Positions 26,799 through 63,586 of a stretch of 64,000 nucleotides of DNA are shown piece by piece. The notes under the pieces were generated by a model. The model saw only the letters and a list, made by a program, of their open reading frames with translations, ran no database searches and was not told the DNA's origin. The position numbers and the translations under genes are program-made. Source of the DNA: an uncultured Planctomycetia bacterium. Its GTDB lineage: Bacteria; Omnitrophota; Gorgyraeia; 2-02-FULL-51-18. The stretch is from contig CAZXLF010000006.1 of assembly GCA_964642015.1 (NCBI GenBank), forward strand, positions 58,661 to 122,660. Reading direction: 5' to 3'. Each line of letters opens with the position of its first letter. Positions within the stretch are counted from its first letter, which is position 1.

Positions 26799-26804
26799 CG
26801 TTTT

Positions 26805-26940
26805 TATTTGCAGCGCCGAACCGGCCATAATATCCGGGCGGGGAACCCAAAGATTTACCGGGGCGAATCACTCATTCAAAGGTGACAGGTATTAAAACTT
26901 TTCGACCTGAGCCCGGCAGCTAACCTCGCAGGCGGACGTA
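26805..26940 (+). ncRNA. Candidate ydaO/kimA-type c-di-AMP riboswitch (cis-regulatory leader)
   Basis: The leader contains CGGGGAACCCA, GGGGCGAAUC and CCCGGCAGCUAACCUCGCAGG. As I recall it, the ydaO consensus has CGGGGnACCCA, GGGGUGAAUC and a B. subtilis CCCGACAGCUAACUCCGG block. It sits directly upstream of a KimA homologue, the classic regulated gene. Confidence 0.5.
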
Positions 26941-26957
26941 AAAGGAGTATTGAAAGC

Positions 26958-52094: not shown

Positions 52095-52210
52095 ACTCAC
52101 CCTAATTGTCATCCCGAGAAGCCTAGTTTTTAAACTACGCAACGAGGGATCAAACGTTTGATCCCTCCTCTTTCCACTTGAAACTCGAATCGTCGGGATG
52201 ACAAATAATC
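52095..52210. repeat. REP-A: nested palindrome (gtcatcccgag...gagggatcaaacgtttgatccctc...cgtcgggatgac)
   Basis: Outer 11-bp and inner 11-bp perfect inverted repeats. Copies or variants at about 54440-54580, 56830-56960, 58110-58235 and 63945-63985. Confidence 0.5.
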
Positions 52211-52213
52211 TCA

Positions 52214-53125
52214 TCAGTCATATTTCGTATTCGAAAAAAATTCATAGCCCTTCAAAACACTCATCGCGGTCATTTGAACGATATTTCGGTAATCACCCAA
52301 GTCAGCGCGGCCAAGCGCCATGTAGTAAGAATAGCGGTCTTCTAAAGTAACCAGCGCCGGCGCAAAACCCTGCGTCAATAGCTGCGTGAGCATCAAAAGC
52401 CGTCCGACGCGGCCATTACCGTCAAAAAAAGGATGAATAGTCTCAAAGTCATGATGATCGATCGCTATTTTGCCAAGCGGATCCTTTCCGTATCGATTGG
52501 CGCCCCGCAGGAGTTTTTTCATCTTGAGAGGCACCTCCTGAAAAGAAGGCAGTTTTTTATCAGTATTCGTAAGATTAACGGCACCTGTCCGATACTTGCC
52601 GGGCAGTTTATTGCCGAAATTGTACAGGACGATCTCATGAAGTTTCAAAACAAAAGCTTCGTCGATCTTAAAGCCGGGCCGGACTTTTTCAATTAAAAAC
52701 TCAAGCGCGTTTTTATGGTTGATGGCCTCCATCACCTCAAAAGGCTCTTTGCCGCGGACCGTTTTTCCTTCGATCGCCCTTTGGGTTTCCCGCATCGTCA
52801 TACGGCTTCCCTCGATCGCGTTGGAATGATAGGTCATCCGCAGAAAAAATTCTTCCCGGAGCGTCCTATTTTCTTTGAGCATTTTTAGAGGATTCGGCCA
52901 TTTGGCACGCAGGTCCATGATCAGCCGCCGCAGGTCCGCGTGTTCTTTAAAAAGCTCATCAATATCTCTCGACTGGGCCGGATGGGGCTGAATCCCCTTT
53001 TCAAACCACCGGTAGACGGTCTTGTACGTCACTTCAAGGCGCCTCGCCAACTCTGACCGGCTTATCCCGGCTGTCTTGATAATAAGCTCTAATTTTTCTT
53101 TATCTGAGGGTAGGTATTTTTTCAT
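52214..53125 (-). CDS. fic: Fic/Fido-domain protein (class II, N-terminal inhibitory helix) with N-terminal HTH
   Basis: Fic motif [12 protein letters not shown]; inhibitory (S/T)xxxE(G/N) motif YHSNAIEGS upstream; N-terminal HTH ([20 protein letters not shown]). Confidence 0.85.
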
Positions 53126-53326
53126 ATTTTTATATAGGACATATGTCCTATTATTAGGAACATATATAATATACCATATGTCCTATCAAATATGCAACTC
53201 TCCCTAGCCTTGTCTAAACGCCCCCTGGATTTATCTAACTCACCCTAACCCTCTCTTTAAATAAAGAGAGGGAAAGTTCAGCGCTTCCCCCCTCTTATTT
53301 TTAAGAGGGGGCTAGGGGGCGTTAGT

Positions 53327-53614
53327 CTACCGTATCAACCAAACATAAATAAACGCGAATATCCCAAGAAAGAGAACCGACAGGCCCATGATACGTGTGT
53401 TTCTTATCTCCTTGGCCATAGAGATAGGTTCCATCCGCCAATTAATGAGCCGGTAAAAGGCTATTTGCAAATCGATGACTTTTTTCGGCTGCCAGGCCAC
53501 CAACGCTCCAAATGCTATCGCGATCACCGCCACGGTGAGCCGCATGCAATACGAGCATATCACTCCACCAAAACAGGTGCACTTCGCGAATAAAGACGGG
53601 AGTATGGGATTCAT
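53327..53614 (-). CDS. Small Cys-rich membrane protein (2-3 TM)
   Basis: CTCFGGVICSYC followed by TM helices; conserved within the duplicated cassette. Confidence 0.4.
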   Translation of the reverse strand: MNPILPSLFAKCTCFGGVICSYCMRLTVAVIAIAFGALVAWQPKKVIDLQIAFYRLINWRMEPISMAKEIRNTRIMGLSVLFLGIFAFIYVWLIR

Positions 53615-53690
53615 GGCTCTATTCTAACTCTCGCTAGCCATTTTGTGAATCTTGCTTCCTGGTGCGTTAAAAAGAGGATTTAAGGAGTGA

Positions 53691-53978
53691 TTATTTCAGA
53701 GCTTCTCGGATTGCATCGAGGCGATTTTCGGCGACTTTCAATAAAATTCGCGCTGCGCCATCAGGATAAGTGCGTCCCTGTTCCCAATTTCTAAGTGTAG
53801 CCGGACTTACGCCTATAAGTTCTGCAAACTGCGTCTGGCTAACTCGCCACTTCTGCCGTATAGATTTTATATCCATCGGCTTAACATCAAACACTCTAGA
53901 AGCTTTCCGTTTACCGGCATGGATCGTTCTCGCTTGATCAATACTTCTCAATAACTTCCTAAATGCTGCCTGCTTCAT
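53691..53978 (-). CDS. higA: HigA-type antitoxin (XRE HTH)
   Basis: HTH: SQTQFAELIGVSPATLRNWEQGR. 4-nt overlap with the upstream toxin gene (toxin-first order typical of higBA). Confidence 0.7.
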   Translation of the reverse strand: MKQAAFRKLLRSIDQARTIHAGKRKASRVFDVKPMDIKSIRQKWRVSQTQFAELIGVSPATLRNWEQGRTYPDGAARILLKVAENRLDAIREALK

Positions 53979-54295
53979 AACACTCCTGTTTTGATATAAG
54001 CCTGCAATTCCTTTAACTGACTTCTAGATAAGTCCCCATGACGAATCTTATCATACGCAAAGATCATATATAAGTTATCGTTTGACTGTATATAATAAAT
54101 GAGTCGAATACCGCTTCTCTTCCCCTTTTGTTTTTGGCGGGAGATCCATCGAACTTTTCTAAGACCTCCGCCGCCCGGGATCAAAACACCTTTTTTTGGA
54201 TCACGGACTAACAACCATTGAAGCGCTCTATATTCTTCATCAACAAGCAATGTCTTTATGACAGATGTGAAAATGGATGTTTCAATAAATACCAA
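53975..54295 (-). CDS. higB: HigB/RelE-family toxin (plasmid maintenance system killer)
   Basis: Resembles HigB-2/RelE-like killers (LRKVRW...GKRSGIRLIYY...MIFAYDK). A palindromic operator-like tatacgctattagcgtata lies just upstream. Confidence 0.65.
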   Translation of the reverse strand: MVFIETSIFTSVIKTLLVDEEYRALQWLLVRDPKKGVLIPGGGGLRKVRWISRQKQKGKRSGIRLIYYIQSNDNLYMIFAYDKIRHGDLSRSQLKELQAYIKTGVL

Positions 54296-54583
54296 CGGCG
54301 CCTTTCATTTATAAGTATACGCTATTAGCGTATGATTATACAAGTCTAAAGTTTGACTATAATAAACGATCCTTTCTTTCATATTAGAAGACGACGATAC
54401 ACCTTGAATTCGTTCAAAAATCTTCTGGATTTTTTTCGACTAACAGCGGGAGTTACTAATTGTCATTCTGAGTCCTAATGTCATCCCGAGGAGCTTATCT
54501 TTAAATCCGCGACGAGGGATCAAACGTTTGATCCCTCCTCTTTCCACTTGAAACTCGAATCGTCGGGATGACAAATAATCTCA

Positions 54584-55495
54584 TCAGTCATATTTCGTAT
54601 TCGAAAAAAATTCATAGCCCTTCAAAACACTCATCGCGGTCATTTGAACGATATTTCGGTAATCACCCAAGTCAGCGCGGCCAAGCGCCATGTAGTAAGA
54701 ATAGCGGTCTTCTAAAGTAACCAGCGCCGGCGCAAAACCCTGCGTCAATAGCTGCGTGAGCATCAAAAGCCGTCCGACGCGGCCATTACCGTCAAAAAAA
54801 GGATGAATAGTCTCAAAGTCATGATGATCGATCGCTATTTTGCCAAGCGGATCCTTTCCGTATCGATTGGCGCCCCGCAGGAGTTTTTTCATCTTGAGAG
54901 GCACCTCCTGAAAAGAAGGCAGTTTTTTATCAGTATTCGTAAGATTAACGGCACCTGTCCGATACTTGCCGGGCAGTTTATTGCCGAAATTGTACAGGAC
55001 GATCTCATGAAGTTTCAAAACAAAAGCTTCGTCGATCTTAAAGCCGGGCCGGACTTTTTCAATTAAAAACTCAAGCGCGTTTTTATGGTTGATGGCCTCC
55101 ATCACCTCAAAAGGCTCTTTGCCGCGGACCGTTTTTCCTTCGATCGCCCTTTGGGTTTCCCGCATCGTCATACGGCTTCCCTCGATCGCGTTGGAATGAT
55201 AGGTCATCCGCAGAAAAAATTCTTCCCGGAGCGTCCTATTTTCTTTGAGCATTTTTAGAGGATTCGGCCATTTGGCACGCAGGTCCATGATCAGCCGCCG
55301 CAGGTCCGCGTGTTCTTTAAAAAGCTCATCAATATCTCTCGACTGGGCCGGATGGGGCTGAATCCCCTTTTCAAACCACCGGTAGACGGTCTTGTACGTC
55401 ACTTCAAGGCGCCTCGCCAACTCTGACCGGCTTATCCCGGCTGTCTTGATAATAAGCTCTAATTTTTCTTTATCTGAGGGTAGGTATTTTTTCAT
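54584..55495 (-). CDS. fic: Fic/Fido-domain protein, duplicate copy
   Basis: Identical to 52214-53125. Confidence 0.85.
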
Positions 55496-55696
55496 ATTTT
55501 TATATAGGACATATGTCCTATTATTAGGAACATATATAATATACCATATGTCCTATCAAATATGCAACTCTCCCTAGCCTTGTCTAAACGCCCCCTGGAT
55601 TTATCTAACTCACCCTAACCCTCTCTTTAAATAAAGAGAGGGAAAGTTCAGCGCTTCCCCCCTCTTATTTTTAAGAGGGGGCTAGGGGGCGTTAGT

Positions 55697-55984
55697 CTAC
55701 CGTATCAACCAAACATAAATAAACGCGAATATCCCAAGAAAGAGAACCGACAGGCCCATGATACGTGTGTTTCTTATCTCCTTGGCCATAGAGATAGGTT
55801 CCATCCGCCAATTAATGAGCCGGTAAAAGGCTATTTGCAAATCGATGACTTTTTTCGGCTGCCAGGCCACCAACGCTCCAAATGCTATCGCGATCACCGC
55901 CACGGTGAGCCGCATGCAATACGAGCATATCACTCCACCAAAACAGGTGCACTTCGCGAATAAAGACGGGAGTATGGGATTCAT
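55697..55984 (-). CDS. Small Cys-rich membrane protein, duplicate copy
   Basis: Identical to 53327-53614. Confidence 0.4.
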   Translation of the reverse strand: MNPILPSLFAKCTCFGGVICSYCMRLTVAVIAIAFGALVAWQPKKVIDLQIAFYRLINWRMEPISMAKEIRNTRIMGLSVLFLGIFAFIYVWLIR

Positions 55985-56060
55985 GGCTCTATTCTAACTC
56001 TCGCTAGCCATTTTGTGAATCTTGCTTCCTGGTGCGTTAAAAAGAGGATTTAAGGAGTGA

Positions 56061-56348
56061 TTATTTCAGAGCTTCTCGGATTGCATCGAGGCGATTTTCG
56101 GCGACTTTCAATAAAATTCGCGCTGCGCCATCAGGATAAGTGCGTCCCTGTTCCCAATTTCTAAGTGTAGCCGGACTTACGCCTATAAGTTCTGCAAACT
56201 GCGTCTGGCTAACTCGCCACTTCTGCCGTATAGATTTTATATCCATCGGCTTAACATCAAACACTCTAGAAGCTTTCCGTTTACCGGCATGGATCGTTCT
56301 CGCTTGATCAATACTTCTCAATAACTTCCTAAATGCTGCCTGCTTCAT
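56061..56348 (-). CDS. higA: HigA-type antitoxin, duplicate copy
   Basis: Identical to 53691-53978. Confidence 0.7.
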   Translation of the reverse strand: MKQAAFRKLLRSIDQARTIHAGKRKASRVFDVKPMDIKSIRQKWRVSQTQFAELIGVSPATLRNWEQGRTYPDGAARILLKVAENRLDAIREALK

Positions 56349-56665
56349 AACACTCCTGTTTTGATATAAGCCTGCAATTCCTTTAACTGACTTCTAGATA
56401 AGTCCCCATGACGAATCTTATCATACGCAAAGATCATATATAAGTTATCGTTTGACTGTATATAATAAATGAGTCGAATACCGCTTCTCTTCCCCTTTTG
56501 TTTTTGGCGGGAGATCCATCGAACTTTTCTAAGACCTCCGCCGCCCGGGATCAAAACACCTTTTTTTGGATCACGGACTAACAACCATTGAAGCGCTCTA
56601 TATTCTTCATCAACAAGCAATGTCTTTATGACAGATGTGAAAATGGATGTTTCAATAAATACCAA
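56345..56665 (-). CDS. higB: HigB/RelE-family toxin, duplicate copy
   Basis: Identical to 53975-54295. Confidence 0.65.
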   Translation of the reverse strand: MVFIETSIFTSVIKTLLVDEEYRALQWLLVRDPKKGVLIPGGGGLRKVRWISRQKQKGKRSGIRLIYYIQSNDNLYMIFAYDKIRHGDLSRSQLKELQAYIKTGVL

Positions 56666-56968
56666 CGGCGCCTTTCATTTATAAGTATACGCTATTAGCG
56701 TATGATTATACAAGTCTAAAGTTTGACTATAATAAACGATCCTTTCTTTCATATTAGAAGACGACGATACACCTTGAATTCGTTCAAAAATCTTCTGGAT
56801 TTTTTTCGACTAACAGCGGGAGTTACTAATTGTCATTCTGAGTCCTAATGTCATCCCGAGGAGCTTATCTTTAAATCCGCGACGAGGGATCAAACGCTTG
56901 ATCCCTCCTCTTATCGATTTAAACTCGAATCGCCTGCCTGCCGGCAGGCAGGTCGGGATGATAAATAA

Positions 56969-58986: not shown

Positions 58987-59700
58987 CTATTTTTGAATCG
59001 GAGAGGGCTTTGCTAGCACTCGCTTTTCTATGGCTACAAAAAACTTATCTGCAATTTCTAATAATAAATTGGTGTTTCCAACCATATCTTCACGTTTTCT
59101 AGGGAATCTTCTTCGATTACTTTGATTAAAATCAATGTCCATGTCATGACTAATACGGTTACGTATTTCAAACACTTGATCGACCTTTTTAAAATCTGAC
59201 ATTAATTCGTCAGCTATTATCCCAAAATGAGCTGCTGCCGATAATAGCTGGCTTCTTGATTGCATGCTATTTGAAGTCAATTTTTTTACTAAAGTAGATA
59301 AGAAAGCATCCCGAGGCGTCCTCTGAGAAAGAGCAGATGCTAACATATTAAAATCAATTGTAGGTAATTGAGATCCTGAAACTGGCATCTTGATCGCCGT
59401 TGAAATAAATGATTCAAATTGTTGAAATGCGCCTCTATCACAATTAATTACGATCCCTAATGCATCCTTTACTAACTGCTGAACCATAGAATCCAAACCG
59501 GCTGATGCAAAGATTAACATTGCTCGAAGCAGATCTTGATCCTGATCAGTCGGCGCTCCCATTTTATTTGGACGGCTATCAAATGACGAAAGAAATGAGC
59601 CAGAAGTTTCATGAGTGTGCACTAGTATAAAATATGCCTTTGCTAATTCTTGATTTTTAGGTTCTTTTTTTACAGATGGAGACTTGATTCCTGTCTTCAC
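58987..59700 (-). CDS. Hypothetical cytoplasmic protein, last gene of the R-M operon; carries an Rx4H (HEPN-like) motif
   Basis: EIRNRISHD near the C-terminus; all-alpha-like composition. Family otherwise unrecognised. Confidence 0.35.
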   Translation of the reverse strand: MKTGIKSPSVKKEPKNQELAKAYFILVHTHETSGSFLSSFDSRPNKMGAPTDQDQDLLRAMLIFASAGLDSMVQQLVKDALGIVINCDRGAFQQFESFISTAIKMPVSGSQLPTIDFNMLASALSQRTPRDAFLSTLVKKLTSNSMQSRSQLLSAAAHFGIIADELMSDFKKVDQVFEIRNRISHDMDIDFNQSNRRRFPRKREDMVGNTNLLLEIADKFFVAIEKRVLAKPSPIQK

Positions 59701-59704
59701 GGTG

Positions 59705-60013
59705 TTAACCCTTTTTTAATTGAACATCTTCTGCGCCTAGCGGAAGTGGGAAATATCCAGCATATCCCGGATAGCCGGGATAACCAGGATAACCAGGATA
59801 GCCGGGATAACCAGGATACCCTTTATATGGTCTATTATAAAAATAAAGTAATCTATTTTTATGGTAGATGCTGCCCAAATATTCTCCATCAGTTGTAACG
59901 ACATCTGATTCATCCCAAGGCAACCAACCTATCCATTCGCCATCAATGTCGTATACATATTTACCCCTACGGAAGGCTATCCAATTGCCTGATGAATCAA
60001 ATAAATACTGCAA
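59705..60013 (-). CDS. Repeat protein with three G-x-WIa/YLG beta-repeat units and a (GYP)x6-7 tandem tripeptide repeat
   Basis: GNWIAFRRGKYVYD / GEWIGWLPWDESD / GEYLGSIYHKN repeats, then GYPGYPGYPGYPGYPGYPGYA encoded by a 9-nt DNA tandem repeat at about 59755-59820. Confidence 0.4.
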   Translation of the reverse strand: MQYLFDSSGNWIAFRRGKYVYDIDGEWIGWLPWDESDVVTTDGEYLGSIYHKNRLLYFYNRPYKGYPGYPGYPGYPGYPGYPGYAGYFPLPLGAEDVQLKKG

Positions 60014-60095
60014 TATTTTACCCTCTAACGATTATCACTTTTGTCCAACTAAAGCAGCCAGTTTATATGAAAACCTTCAAAAAAATTATGCACAT

Positions 60096-60542
60096 TTATT
60101 TAAGCGGCTTTATTTTCTTAATAATTTTTATAATTTGGTTTTCAGATTTTAAGGAATGCTCCCAAAAGCGTTTAACCTCAAAACCTCGTTGCTTCAAAAT
60201 ACGGTTTATTCTTCTATCTCTCAATTGATTTCGTTCAATCTTTGTTTTCCAATATTTGCTTCTAGTTTTGGGAATATGCCCACAATCATGGCATCCATGC
60301 CAAAAGCATCCATCGACAAAAATAATAAGTTTTGTTTTTGGGAAAAACACATCAGGGCAACCAACCATACCTGCGGGATGCAAACGCCATCCTTTCAACC
60401 CATTCCGCATGAGCGCAGATCTGAGCTTTCTTTCCGTAGTCTTATTATTCTTTCCACGGATAGCTTGCATGGTTTTAGATCGAATGGTGCTTACTTTTAT
60501 AAACTTTCCATATCGTAGGGTTCGTTTAAGTATTTTTTCCAT
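60096..60542 (-). CDS. vsr: Very-short-patch repair endonuclease
   Basis: IIFVDGCFWHGC...H...W motif; abuts the C5-MTase gene. Confidence 0.85.
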   Translation of the reverse strand: MEKILKRTLRYGKFIKVSTIRSKTMQAIRGKNNKTTERKLRSALMRNGLKGWRLHPAGMVGCPDVFFPKTKLIIFVDGCFWHGCHDCGHIPKTRSKYWKTKIERNQLRDRRINRILKQRGFEVKRFWEHSLKSENQIIKIIKKIKPLK

Positions 60543-61814
60543 TTAAACACTTAAACTTAATTCAAGCTGCGCCTCAGCAGGTTCCTGAATTACCATTGTC
60601 TTGGAATCGAATTTGCCGCTTAACATGGCTATGAGGCAACGACCTACATAGTAAGCCAAATTAACAGGAACAGCATTTCCTATCTGCTTATATTGAGATC
60701 CCATAGATCCCTCAAATTTCCATTGGTCAGGAAAAGATTGAATTCGCGCAGACTCTCTTATAGTCAAAGGTCTTGTTTCTGTGGGGTGGCATCTTTCAGT
60801 CTGCCCCTGTGCGGGTGTACAAACCAGAGTCAAACTTGGCTCATCCCATGCCAGACGTCTCGCCATTCCTGTTTTACCACCTCCCAGGTAAAAGCTCCCT
60901 TGCATATATTCTTTTTGCAGCTCAATTGGTAAATCCCTCCAGTAACCTCCTTCGGGAACCTTTGACATAATATAAGCTTTTCTCTTCGGATACGTGGCAC
61001 CTTCTGATTTTGGACAACTCTTTAAAACATCTCGTAAAATAAGGCAATGGTCTCTCCCCTTAGGAAATATAAAAGGCATCTTCAAATCCTTTCTTATACC
61101 CAGTATGATCAGCCGTTCTCTCTTTTGAGCGACATCGAGATATTGAGCCTGAAGTAATTTCCACGTAACGTCGTATCCAAGCTCACTCAAACGTTCTATC
61201 ATGGCTTTTAGGGTTCTGCCATTATCGTGTTGAATCAACCCTTTAACATTTTCACCTAATGCTATCTTAGGTCTTATTTCTTCAACGCATCTAGCGAATT
61301 CAAAAAATAGGGTTCCTCTTGTATCAGTAAATCCTCGCCCAGCACCTGCATAACTAAATGCCTGACAGGGAAAGCCGCCCGCGACAACATCTACCTCATT
61401 GTAATAAGGCTTAAAATCGACGTTTTTTATATCGTCATGTATAACTGGCCATTTTGGCCTATTTTTTTTCAAAGTTGCAACGGCGTCCTTATCGAATTCA
61501 ACCAGCAATCGTGATTTGAATCCAGCATTTGAAAGACCTAAGGCTAGTCCACCTGCACCTGAGAATAGCTCGATAACCGAATATTTAGTGGATTTGGAAA
61601 CGTGGACGTGAAATCTATATTGCGATCTCTTGCTCTTTAGTCTTTTCTTTAAGTTCAAAATTTGCTGCACATCAAATAGCCTTCCATACAAACTCGACCG
61701 CTCTGATTTAATCAAACATTTCTTTTCCCAATACAAAATCTCTTTTGTAGACGTCTTTGTCTTTTCAGAAACTAATCCAAGCGGCAGTTTGTTTGAATTT
61801 ATATTATTAAGCAT
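60543..61814 (-). CDS. dcm: DNA (cytosine-5)-methyltransferase
   Basis: Motif I FSGAGG, motif IV GGFPCQAFSYAG, motif VI ENVKGL, motif X QIGNAVPV. There is a roughly 75-aa extension before motif I. The ORF-track start is TTG; the internal ATG is used. Confidence 0.85.
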   Translation of the reverse strand: MLNNINSNKLPLGLVSEKTKTSTKEILYWEKKCLIKSERSSLYGRLFDVQQILNLKKRLKSKRSQYRFHVHVSKSTKYSVIELFSGAGGLALGLSNAGFKSRLLVEFDKDAVATLKKNRPKWPVIHDDIKNVDFKPYYNEVDVVAGGFPCQAFSYAGAGRGFTDTRGTLFFEFARCVEEIRPKIALGENVKGLIQHDNGRTLKAMIERLSELGYDVTWKLLQAQYLDVAQKRERLIILGIRKDLKMPFIFPKGRDHCLILRDVLKSCPKSEGATYPKRKAYIMSKVPEGGYWRDLPIELQKEYMQGSFYLGGGKTGMARRLAWDEPSLTLVCTPAQGQTERCHPTETRPLTIRESARIQSFPDQWKFEGSMGSQYKQIGNAVPVNLAYYVGRCLIAMLSGKFDSKTMVIQEPAEAQLELSLSV

Positions 61815-61819
61815 ATTGT

Positions 61820-62527
61820 TTACCGATAAGTTCTCCAAAAGATCTTTTCCAATTCTTTGGCATCTTTAAGATTATCAATTTTTATTTCACACTCTTTCTC
61901 TAATATTTTGGGGATAACGTTAAATACTTTGAGCAGCCCATCTTTATCTCCCGTAATTAACTCATAGAATTTAAAACCTGATATCTCCAATATATGGTCA
62001 TTTTCAGGTCGCCTTTTGTGTGTCGTTCTATCAGATGGCACAAAAGATTTAAGATGGTTTTTGTCCTTTGTTATCATCATCACATGATACGCCATAAAAC
62101 CTCTATGCTCATTCCGTGATAAAGCCTCTTCCAATTCATCGTAAATCTTGATTAAATGAATGCCAGTGACTGTATTATATTTATTTTTTATTTCTGCTAT
62201 TATTTTTTTACTCTTATTGCGTACATCAATAAGGTTCCCTTTCCCTAAATTCTCCCACCCATCTATTCCTCCAATCACATCTTGATGGAATTCACCTACA
62301 GCATTTTGCATGGTCTTTTGAGCTTGGCGAGTAGCTTCTAATTTAAGCCATTCGCCATATGAGACGCCACCAACTAGCGCCTCATACATGGCTGAAAAAG
62401 CATCGAGAATATTTTCATCAATATTTGTATGTAAAAGAGCGGCTTGAGTCTTTGAAACTACTGCTTTGACCGCAGCTACAAGCTTTTCATTAGAAATAAA
62501 CGGAACTAACCTCTTGTCTACCAACAT
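61820..62527 (-). CDS. Type II restriction endonuclease (PD-(D/E)xK-like); family uncertain
   Basis: First gene of the operon, 5 nt upstream of the MTase. GIDGWENLGKGNLIDVRNK...EIKNK is compatible with a D...E-x-K core. Confidence 0.5.
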   Translation of the reverse strand: MLVDKRLVPFISNEKLVAAVKAVVSKTQAALLHTNIDENILDAFSAMYEALVGGVSYGEWLKLEATRQAQKTMQNAVGEFHQDVIGGIDGWENLGKGNLIDVRNKSKKIIAEIKNKYNTVTGIHLIKIYDELEEALSRNEHRGFMAYHVMMITKDKNHLKSFVPSDRTTHKRRPENDHILEISGFKFYELITGDKDGLLKVFNVIPKILEKECEIKIDNLKDAKELEKIFWRTYR

Positions 62528-62769
62528 TTAATAGTTACTCCTAGAAGGAACATGTTAGATTTATTAGATTTTAATAGTCTACTCCCCTCCCTTTTTGCTG
62601 TCACGAAAATCGTTTGCCCCGCACCCACCCCCGCGCTCACCCGCGCTCTCGGCGGTTTCGACAGAAAACGCCGTACTGCGTCAGCAGTTTTGCGTTAAAC
62701 CTACCCGCACTCAACGCAAAGAGAGCGCCATTCTTTTATATTTTATGTTTTTACTATTATTTCAAGGGA

Positions 62770-62975: not shown

Positions 62976-63046
62976 TAAAAAATTCAGTAAAATCCATGAA
63001 CGAAAACAAGGGAGTTCGTCGTCTTGTATGGTTAAGGAGGACAGCT

Positions 63047-63586
63047 ATGCCTAAAAATATTGTCTCGGTTATTCAAGGCTCTACAATTTCATCACGGATC
63101 TATCTGATACGCGGGAAGCGCGTACTGCTTGATTCGGACCTAGCGGAACTCTACGGAGTACTAACGAAGAATTTAAATAAAGCTATTCATCGCAACGTGA
63201 GCCGTTTCCCTGAGGACTTTATGTTCCAGCTCACTTCTGGTGAGGCAGAATCTTTGAGGTTCCAAATTGGAACCTCAAAAAAGGGTCGTGGTGGACGCCG
63301 TTATTTACCCTATGCATTTACCCAAGAAGGCGTCGCTATGCTCTCAGGCGTCTTGAATAGCCCGCGGGCCATCCAAGCCAATATCCTTATCATGCGAGCT
63401 TTTATAAAACTCCGTGAGCTAGTAGCTACAAATGAACTCATCCGCCAAAAAATTGAAGAACTTGAGCGCAAATACGAAAAACACGACAATCAATTAAAGG
63501 CTGTTTTTGAGGCATTGAGAGACTTACTCGAACCGCCGGAGATCCCTAAGAAAAAACCCATCGGTTTTCATGTGAAATATGAATAG
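63047..63586 (+). CDS. ORF6N/KilA-N-like domain protein (phage antirepressor-associated family)
   Basis: IRGKRVLLDSDLAELYGVLTKNLNKAIHRNVSRFPEDFMFQLT...RRYLPYAFTQEGVAMLSGVLNS is a hallmark ORF6N block. Internal ATG with AAGGAGG RBS. Confidence 0.7.
   Translation: MPKNIVSVIQGSTISSRIYLIRGKRVLLDSDLAELYGVLTKNLNKAIHRNVSRFPEDFMFQLTSGEAESLRFQIGTSKKGRGGRRYLPYAFTQEGVAMLSGVLNSPRAIQANILIMRAFIKLRELVATNELIRQKIEELERKYEKHDNQLKAVFEALRDLLEPPEIPKKKPIGFHVKYE

Follow-up and report, generated by a model that had tools for sequence, protein, structure and literature searches.

We analyzed a 64,000-nucleotide stretch of contig CAZXLF010000006.1 from an uncultured Planctomycetia bacterium (the window), in which an AT-rich island on the minus strand (58987-62527) carries five co-oriented open reading frames (ORFs). 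The three upstream genes encode a restriction endonuclease (REase; R), a C5-cytosine methyltransferase (MTase; M), and the very-short-patch-repair mismatch endonuclease Vsr; the two downstream genes, referred to as genes 4 and 5, encode a beta-flower (Bflower) protein with a C-terminal (G-Y/F-P)n tail (Bflower-GYP) and an HEPN-like protein, respectively. Genes 4 and 5 form an autonomous, translationally coupled pair. As a reasonably probable reading, we favor two independent modules in the island, a restriction-modification (R-M)/Vsr module and an autonomous beta-flower/HEPN cassette that is most likely similar to toxin-antitoxin (TA) or abortive infection (Abi) systems.

Conservation of the Bflower-HEPN pair across genomes

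Comparative loci were collected from two sides, with genes called as crude six-frame ORFs. The HEPN-seeded set contained 80 genome loci, one genome per species, with 18 lineage names in the record titles; over-extended ORF starts were corrected and two contig-edge loci were left out, yielding 78 evaluable loci. The Bflower-seeded set was drawn from metagenome and viral contigs and yielded 64 evaluable loci with a full-length Bflower-GYP gene. Searches seeded in this way favor the conserved core of each family.

The Bflower gene lies immediately upstream of the HEPN gene on the same strand in 73 of the 78 HEPN-seeded loci, with a modal overlap of 4 nt (-4), and no third conserved gene joins the cassette among these loci. 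The other five HEPN genes (L052, L055, L057, L075, and L086), which have no upstream Bflower gene, form a divergent subgroup with GLDG/DILRAM variants; the one at L075 follows a 1585-aa ORF, and the one at L052 follows a 252-aa ORF with a possible R..H-type motif. When the search was seeded with Bflower, HEPN was found directly downstream in 40/64 loci and was missing in 24/64, where the neighbors are heterogeneous and no alternative conserved partner is observed. Bflower-GYP genes that lack HEPN were seen in an integron cassette, on a viral contig, and in a region resembling a conjugative element, all of them mobile contexts. HEPN is thus rarely found without Bflower and Bflower often without HEPN, which is the pattern expected for a toxin that needs its partner and a partner that is harmless alone.

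Pairwise divergence in Bflower correlates with that in HEPN (r = 0.58; Mantel test, 0/2000 permutations), the mean distance being 0.45 for the more conserved Bflower and 0.56 for HEPN. In the window, the TTG start of gene 4 is preceded by a GAGGG Shine-Dalgarno-like motif, genes 4 and 5 are separated by 4 nt, and their products are charge-complementary, with pI values of 5.2 and 9.5. The pair carries hallmarks of type II TA systems, being composed of two small, tightly coupled, co-directional genes of which the orphan HEPN is rare and the orphan Bflower is tolerated. A word index returned 46 homologues of gene 5, and an exhaustive profile search among 1.84 billion proteins returned 959 representatives of its family at 50% identity. 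With ~960 family representatives in many bacterial lineages, the Bflower-HEPN cassette is widespread and apparently undescribed; none of the searchable papers naming both domains links the beta-flower to HEPN.

Independence of the pair and the R-M genes

The nearest neighbors of the pair are mostly housekeeping genes (e.g., tRNA synthetases, RecA, topoisomerase, and FtsW), and DNA MTases, of type I or III, account for ~5/124 of them. Cyanobacterial pairs are flanked by pheT and scpA-type genes and have no R-M beside them, and in Phormidesmis and another metagenome the Bflower gene and the HEPN gene following it lie among housekeeping genes, again with no R-M nearby. Overall, an R-M gene of any kind is found near the pair at ~10% of loci, and none lies within 5 to 8 kb at ~85 to 90%. 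An Eco47II-type REase like that of the window occurs at 0/80 HEPN-seeded loci, and a C5-MTase together with Vsr occurs at 2/80.

The latter combination was found near the pair only at L064, L074, and L106, and the gene orders differ. In L074 (212-1742) and L106 (3338-4886), the Bflower, HEPN, and Vsr genes follow one another on one strand and the C5-MTase gene is convergent, so that Vsr lies on the opposite side of the pair compared with the window, whereas in L064 the M and Vsr genes are located ~3 kb downstream of the pair. At L090 (5401-8330), from a metagenomic lineage that is abundant (91 contigs), a SocA_Panacea-domain gene comes after the pair, and two DNA MTases and an AlwI-type REase come next, a defense-island-like context. 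The ~10% frequency of R-M near the pair compares with ~1% for a random 10-kb window (our own rough estimate, made without a control set), which suggests that the pair tends to land in defense neighborhoods and provides weak guilt-by-association for a conflict role.

The R-M genes of the window are likewise found without the pair. Their closest REase relatives (65% and 47% identity) retain the core of R followed by an MTase with a MerR-like helix-turn-helix (HTH) domain, and the 65%-identical homologue even keeps the 5-nt gap between R and M seen in the window; Vsr, Bflower, and HEPN are all absent at these two loci, where the next genes are a Gp49/HTH TA pair or resolvase and integrase genes. 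Since these nearest relatives of the R-M genes do without Vsr, its association with the MTase is a variable one. Because the pair occurs mostly without R-M and the closest R-M relatives occur without the pair, the island is best described as separate modules lying side by side. A previous reading of this DNA, made from the sequence alone (the sequence-only reading), had treated genes 4 and 5 as accessories riding on the R-M/Vsr operon, a view that these results do not support.

An integrated five-gene system, in which the pair would serve as a PrrC-like second line that the R-M proteins keep inactive and that is freed when a phage disables restriction, is accordingly improbable. Such a system would account for the co-orientation and the single shared atypical composition of the five genes, as well as for the missing terminator between Vsr and gene 4. 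R-M operons are associated with many HEPN clades, PrrC being a precedent (PMC3710099), and the ~10% of pair loci near an R-M gene, three of them with C5-MTase plus Vsr, point in the same direction. However, most pair loci lack R-M within 5 to 8 kb, the R-M genes that do lie nearby range over types I, II, and III and differ in order and orientation, and the closest relatives of the window R-M lack the pair. In addition, the HEPN protein lacks an ABC-ATPase and any other domain that could couple it to R-M subunits, and its conserved partner is Bflower rather than an R-M protein.

Gene organization and base composition of the island

An ORF check of the window placed the five minus-strand ORFs where the sequence-only reading had placed them (Table 1). 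The spacings of 5 nt between R and M and 0 nt between M and Vsr in that reading were reproduced with M starting at ATG 61814, and the Vsr start codon directly abuts the M stop codon (TAA-ATG), which links Vsr to the C5-MTase. The next intergenic gap, between Vsr and gene 4, extends to 82 nt.

Table 1. Features of the island and its borders in the window
Feature	Position	Strand	Basis or remark
R, Eco47II-family type II REase, 235 aa	61820-62527	-	Pfam, PADLOC
M, C5-MTase with N-terminal MerR-like HTH	60543-61838	-	Pfam, TIGR00675
Vsr, T:G mismatch endonuclease, 148 aa	60096-60542	-	TIGR00632, Pfam Vsr
Gene 4, 4-fold beta-flower protein with C-terminal (G-Y/F-P)n tail, 102 aa	59705-60013	-	PF21784
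Gene 5, HEPN-like protein, periphery of the RiboL-PSP-HEPN family, 237 aa	58987-59700	-	PF18735 family profile
GYP-coding DNA tandem repeat	59753-59818	-	Tandem Repeats Finder (TRF)
Rx4H codons of gene 5, R180-N-R-I-S-H185 (RNRISH)	59146-59163	-	Predicted catalytic motif
AT-rich spacer between Vsr and gene 4, 82 nt, 30.5% GC; module junction	60014-60095	-	
Promoter-like site 5' of R, GTGACA-17-TAGACT	62576-62604	-	Consensus scan, 9/12 matches
8-bp perfect inverted repeat CTGCCCTC/GAGGGCAG, 29-nt loop	58938-58982	-	Just past the gene 5 stop codon

The GC content of the island is 38.0%, compared with 45.6 ± 2.0% for 3.5-kb windows of the 64-kb window; this is the minimum of the window, and 0.17% of the 3.5-kb windows have a GC content as low, in agreement with the AT-rich island of the sequence-only reading. 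The GC content at third codon positions (GC3) is 0.27 to 0.36 in the island genes and 0.53 to 0.55 in the flanking genes. R, M, and Vsr on the one hand and genes 4 and 5 on the other share the same atypical GC and GC3, which argues for joint acquisition of the two modules. The island is probably composite and horizontally acquired, with the R-M core, the Vsr add-on, and the Bflower-HEPN cassette as separable layers that probably represent one acquired block without making up a fixed system. The locus was found again in three Logan metagenome contigs with 99.9 to 100% identity.

The spacer between Vsr and gene 4 contains no terminator-like hairpin and no inverted repeat (RNA fold z = +0.41), and a consensus scan of it gave no good sigma-70 promoter; by eye, a GATAAT -10-like hexamer is seen without a -35 element. 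Genes 4 and 5 may be reached by readthrough from the R-M-Vsr transcript in this genome without the pair depending on it. Judging from its match to the consensus, the promoter-like site 5' of R is a candidate promoter of that transcript. At the other end, the inverted repeat 3' of gene 5 (fold -21.3 kcal/mol, z = -1.2) has no T-tail and sits at the low-GC boundary, and it is a candidate weak terminator or junction. No Rfam family was matched in or near the island.

The beta-flower protein

The product of gene 4 matches PF21784 (Bflower) with 31.2 bits (cutoff of 25), and Pfam otherwise returned only weak collagen-like repeats. Its 378 homologues are 55 to 70% identical over the full length, and most homologues carry PF21784. 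The beta-flower fold was named in 2023, when it had no relative in the PDB and an unknown function, and it is defined by eight short antiparallel strands arranged as four hairpins with [DNEQ]xxG motifs at the tips (PMC10584680). The AlphaFold2 (AF2) model of gene 4, with a predicted local distance difference test (pLDDT) score of 90.7, consists of seven short strands in residues 2 to 58 and one strand at 94 to 96. The hairpin-tip motif is present as D6-S-S-G9 and D22-I-D-G25, and G9 and G43 are invariant. With its predicted short strands and tip motifs, gene 4 appears to fit the definition of PF21784. The model has no fold match in the PDB, which agrees with the original description of the fold, and profile searches of PDB sequences with both the gene 4 and gene 5 families returned spurious collagen or TFIIF matches only.

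The (G-Y/F-P)n tail is kept at the protein level throughout the gene 4 family. AF2 assigns the tail (within 59705-59830) pLDDT values of 83 to 95 despite the lack of regular secondary structure, suggesting that it packs against or threads the beta-flower and is not disordered; other beta-flowers enclose a C-terminal helix (PMC10584680). At the DNA level, TRF describes the tract as an in-frame 9-nt unit repeated 7.3 times with 82% matches, and the repeat is identical in the near-identical contigs L002 and L003. The sequence-only reading had called this tract slippage-prone. A slippage or phase-variation device was ruled out, since the tract is in frame, imperfect as DNA, kept family-wide as protein, and invariant in near-identical contigs, and it is instead a conserved protein feature.

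The HEPN-like protein

The PF18735 (HEPN_RiboL-PSP) profile is matched at E <= 0.01 by 27 of 30 members of the gene 5 family (best value, 4.2e-10); many gene 5 homologues carry a precomputed PF18735 match, and single members touch three other HEPN families. Nearly all family members are stand-alone proteins of ~225 aa. When 30 sequences sharing 34 to 50% identity with the window protein were aligned, the invariant positions were R180, N181, and H185 (RNxxxH) together with the QDLLRA block, D56, D70, S145/Q147/S148, D188, and R201. One viral family of unknown function, phrog_13503, is matched by gene 5 in PHROGs.

HEPN domains are defined by an Rx4-6H motif at the end of helix-3, in which a polar residue (N, D, or H) follows the R, by an acidic residue in helix-2, and by an insert between helices 2 and 3 (PMC3710099). 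The AF2 model of gene 5 is all-alpha (pLDDT of 91.5) and comprises a long helix 52 to 87 containing D56 and D70, small helices in residues 89 to 166, helix 170 to 188, a loop at 189 to 202, and helix 203 to 229. R180 to H185 is located at the C-terminal end of helix 170 to 188, the penultimate long helix. At the level of predicted secondary structure, the order of helices and motifs fits the HEPN definition; a three-dimensional (3D) fold match to HEPN structures was sought and none was obtained. From its family profile, conserved residues, and model, gene 5 is a credible RiboL-PSP-family HEPN and is predicted to act, as an effector or toxin, through metal-independent RNase activity; RNase toxins with HEPN domains are well established in TA and Abi systems (PMC3710099). 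The HEPN assignment made in the sequence-only reading from the RNRISH motif is thus supported by the profile matches of 27/30 members, the invariant motif, and its position in the modeled helix.

The R-M/Vsr module

The assignments of the first three genes in the sequence-only reading were confirmed by family profiles. R matches Pfam RE_Eco47II with an E value of 1.8e-44 (152.2 bits against a cutoff of 25.9) and PADLOC REase_II with 1e-42, and all of its 81 homologues carry PF09553. M matches Pfam DNA_methylase with 2.2e-82 (277.6 bits; aa 87 to 401) and TIGR00675 with 2e-78, and its nearest relatives in the PDB are M.HhaI and M.HaeIII (1.7e-41). The length of M is 431 aa from TTG 61838 or 423 aa from ATG 61814, and its N terminus shows a weak MerR_1 HTH match (0.0016; aa 23 to 64). 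Vsr matches TIGR00632 with 2.6e-31 (108.4 bits against a curated cutoff of 97.85) and Pfam Vsr with 1.7e-17.

Eco47II-type R-M systems belong to the GGNCC family, and C5-MTases with N-terminal HTH autoregulatory domains are of the M.SsoII/M.EcoRII-like kind. The MerR-like HTH of M would probably autoregulate the R-M operon, and Vsr, a nicking endonuclease, would repair the T:G mismatches that arise from deamination of the 5-methylcytosines made by M. GGNCC sites are absent from the 3.5-kb island (0 versus 4.4 expected from composition; P of ~0.012); in the whole window the observed-to-expected ratio of GGNCC is 0.76, a mild under-representation that several other NNxNN palindromes exceed. GGNCC avoidance, which is not distinctive at the window scale, was therefore dropped as a clue to specificity. 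The first module is a conventional type II R-M system plus Vsr and is already known in kind.

Possible mechanism of the pair

For the second module, the favored reading would work as follows. As a metal-independent RNase, the HEPN protein would halt translation or growth once active, and the small cytoplasmic beta-flower protein would bind HEPN and silence it, or would sense a phage cue; infection or loss of the cassette would then release the HEPN RNase. The data show the identities of the genes, the conservation and autonomy of the pair, the invariant motif, and the uneven occurrence of orphan genes; that HEPN cleaves RNA, that the beta-flower inhibits it, and that the pair serves against phages or in addiction is what we infer. 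More tentatively, and with slightly less than even confidence, we propose a phylum-spanning and undescribed two-gene conflict system in which a beta-flower with a polyproline-II/collagen-like tail directly controls an HEPN RNase, as antitoxin or sensor, and in which the beta-flower can also act alone as a minimal, Cernunnos-like defense gene.

Several observations weigh against the favored reading. The 82-nt gap has no terminator, so transcriptional coupling of the pair to the R-M operon is conceivable, and most pair loci lie outside recognizable defense islands. Gene 5 itself reaches PF18735 with an E value of only 0.0037 and 17.6 bits, under the threshold of 28.4, and PADLOC has no model for gene 4 or gene 5. 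Gene 4 contains no DNA-binding domain (HTH, ribbon-helix-helix, or AbrB), unlike classical type II antitoxins, and a related beta-flower protein defends alone, so the role of the beta-flower may go beyond inhibition. Host phylogeny could account for part of the mirror-tree correlation, and the charge trend is weak family-wide (52/73). Three apparent Bflower-HEPN fusions (P0255, P0248, and P0324), which would have spoken for physical contact between the two proteins, were rejected as over-extended gene calls whose N termini are GYP-repeat DNA translated in the wrong frame.

The related protein that defends alone leads to the main rival, which we consider unlikely, namely that a Cernunnos-like beta-flower, as the primary anti-phage component, senses a phage product or an envelope or membrane cue and activates an optional HEPN RNase. 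Cernunnos is a single-gene PF21784 cassette of the Vibrio cholerae superintegron that protects against phages (Darracq et al., bioRxiv 10.1101/2024.07.02.601686). Solo Bflower-GYP genes in mobile contexts are consistent with such a sensor. In Vibrio metschnikovii (L088 and L089, 4001-4321), a solo integron cassette encodes a Bflower-GYP protein 65% identical to gene 4, flanked by VCR/attC-like repeats and with no HEPN gene closer than 4 kb; this cassette may be of the Cernunnos type. The higher conservation of Bflower than of HEPN also fits, as does the membership of the lipid-binding Tubby domain in the beta-flower clan (PMC10584680). On the other hand, searches of E. coli genomes and of phage records, from which homologues of Cernunnos have been reported, gave no relatives of gene 4 (plasmid matches were divergent and uninformative), and the small upstream gene, the 4-nt overlap, and the rarity of orphan HEPN genes suit inhibition equally well or better.

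A housekeeping or stress role in RNA processing, unrelated to conflict and beside R-M by chance, is very improbable. The housekeeping genes that flank most loci, the silence of PADLOC, and the essential absence of the pair from phage and plasmid collections would be expected in that case. However, the pair is patchy over the 18 named lineages, with only 959 representatives in 1.84 billion proteins; it has an atypical composition at the window locus and recurs beside R-M, TA, or SocA-type genes above the rough background estimate. One Bflower copy is an integron cassette, and there is a match to the viral family phrog_13503.

A TA/Abi-like cassette thus remains our preferred reading of genes 4 and 5. 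The defense or abortive-infection add-on suggested in the sequence-only reading survives as the best guess for these two genes and falls as a part of the R-M system. That reading had counted homologues unrelated to defense among the grounds for its refutation, and here the outcome is divided, as the homologues are unrelated to R-M and not to defense. The only functional clue for PF21784 so far is the anti-phage integron cassette Cernunnos, and the HEPN partnership places the beta-flower fold, as inhibitor or sensor, in a functional context that can be tested for the first time. The cassette is a further candidate for the list of small TA/Abi-type defense modules, with the caution that adjacency to an R-M operon is not equal to functional integration.

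Surroundings of the island

Divergent from and just upstream of the REase gene, an ORF at 62996-63586 (+) encodes an ORF6N-domain protein (Pfam, 1.2e-31; PHROG anti-repressor families, 1.4e-24), and its presence at the island edge hints at a mobile-element or prophage-remnant context. On the other side, at 56061-56665 (-) and ~2.3 kb from the island, a 106-aa RelE-like ORF (sub-threshold match) overlaps a 95-aa Xre/HTH_3 ORF; the two probably form a TA pair. A 2370-bp unit is tandemly duplicated (52130-56870, with copies starting at 52130 and 54500), and each copy carries the same 303-aa Fic/DOC-domain ORF (52214-53125 and 54584-55495). In the near-identical contig L001 this unit is present once, indicating either a recent duplication or an assembly difference. 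With the probable TA pair and the Fic genes, the surroundings are rich in TA-type genes. The sole Rfam match of the window is a full-length cyclic di-AMP (c-di-AMP) riboswitch (RF00379; 80 bits against a gathering threshold of 38) at 26804-26949 (+).

Comparison with known systems

The first module resembles other Eco47II-type R-M systems with Vsr in that the REase gene is directly followed by the C5-MTase gene and Vsr abuts the MTase stop codon, and nothing notable sets the R-M/Vsr module of the window apart from them. For the pair, the comparison is more divided. In PrrC/EcoprrI, a type Ic R-M system guards an anticodon nuclease of the HEPN kind; the predicted HEPN RNase of the window likewise lies beside R-M, with a conceivable second-line role. 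However, PrrC has an ABC-ATPase domain and is obligately embedded in an R-M operon, whereas gene 5 has no ATPase and its R-M link is facultative (~10%).

The RiboL-PSP-HEPN family (PF18735) shares with gene 5 the all-alpha structure and the R-N-x3-H motif where helix-3 ends, and most members of the window family match its model. RiboL-PSP-HEPN has been noted for being fused to endoRNase L-PSP and for sharing an operon with ParB (PMC3710099); in contrast, the window family is stand-alone and has a beta-flower partner, it shows no L-PSP fusion, and ParB is not among its recurrent neighbors. Similar to HEPN-MNT, AbiD/F, AbiJ, AbiU2, and AbiV, the pair combines a predicted HEPN RNase-type toxin gene with a small coupled partner, and it shares with these modules a patchy mobile distribution and occasional R-M adjacency. 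Here, however, the partner is neither a nucleotidyltransferase nor an HTH antitoxin but a beta-flower protein that carries a (GYP)n tail. Cernunnos shares the Pfam 4-fold beta-flower domain with gene 4, a likeness by domain rather than by sequence comparison; unlike the single-gene Cernunnos, gene 4 is coupled to HEPN here and, at the family level, in 40/64 Bflower-seeded loci.

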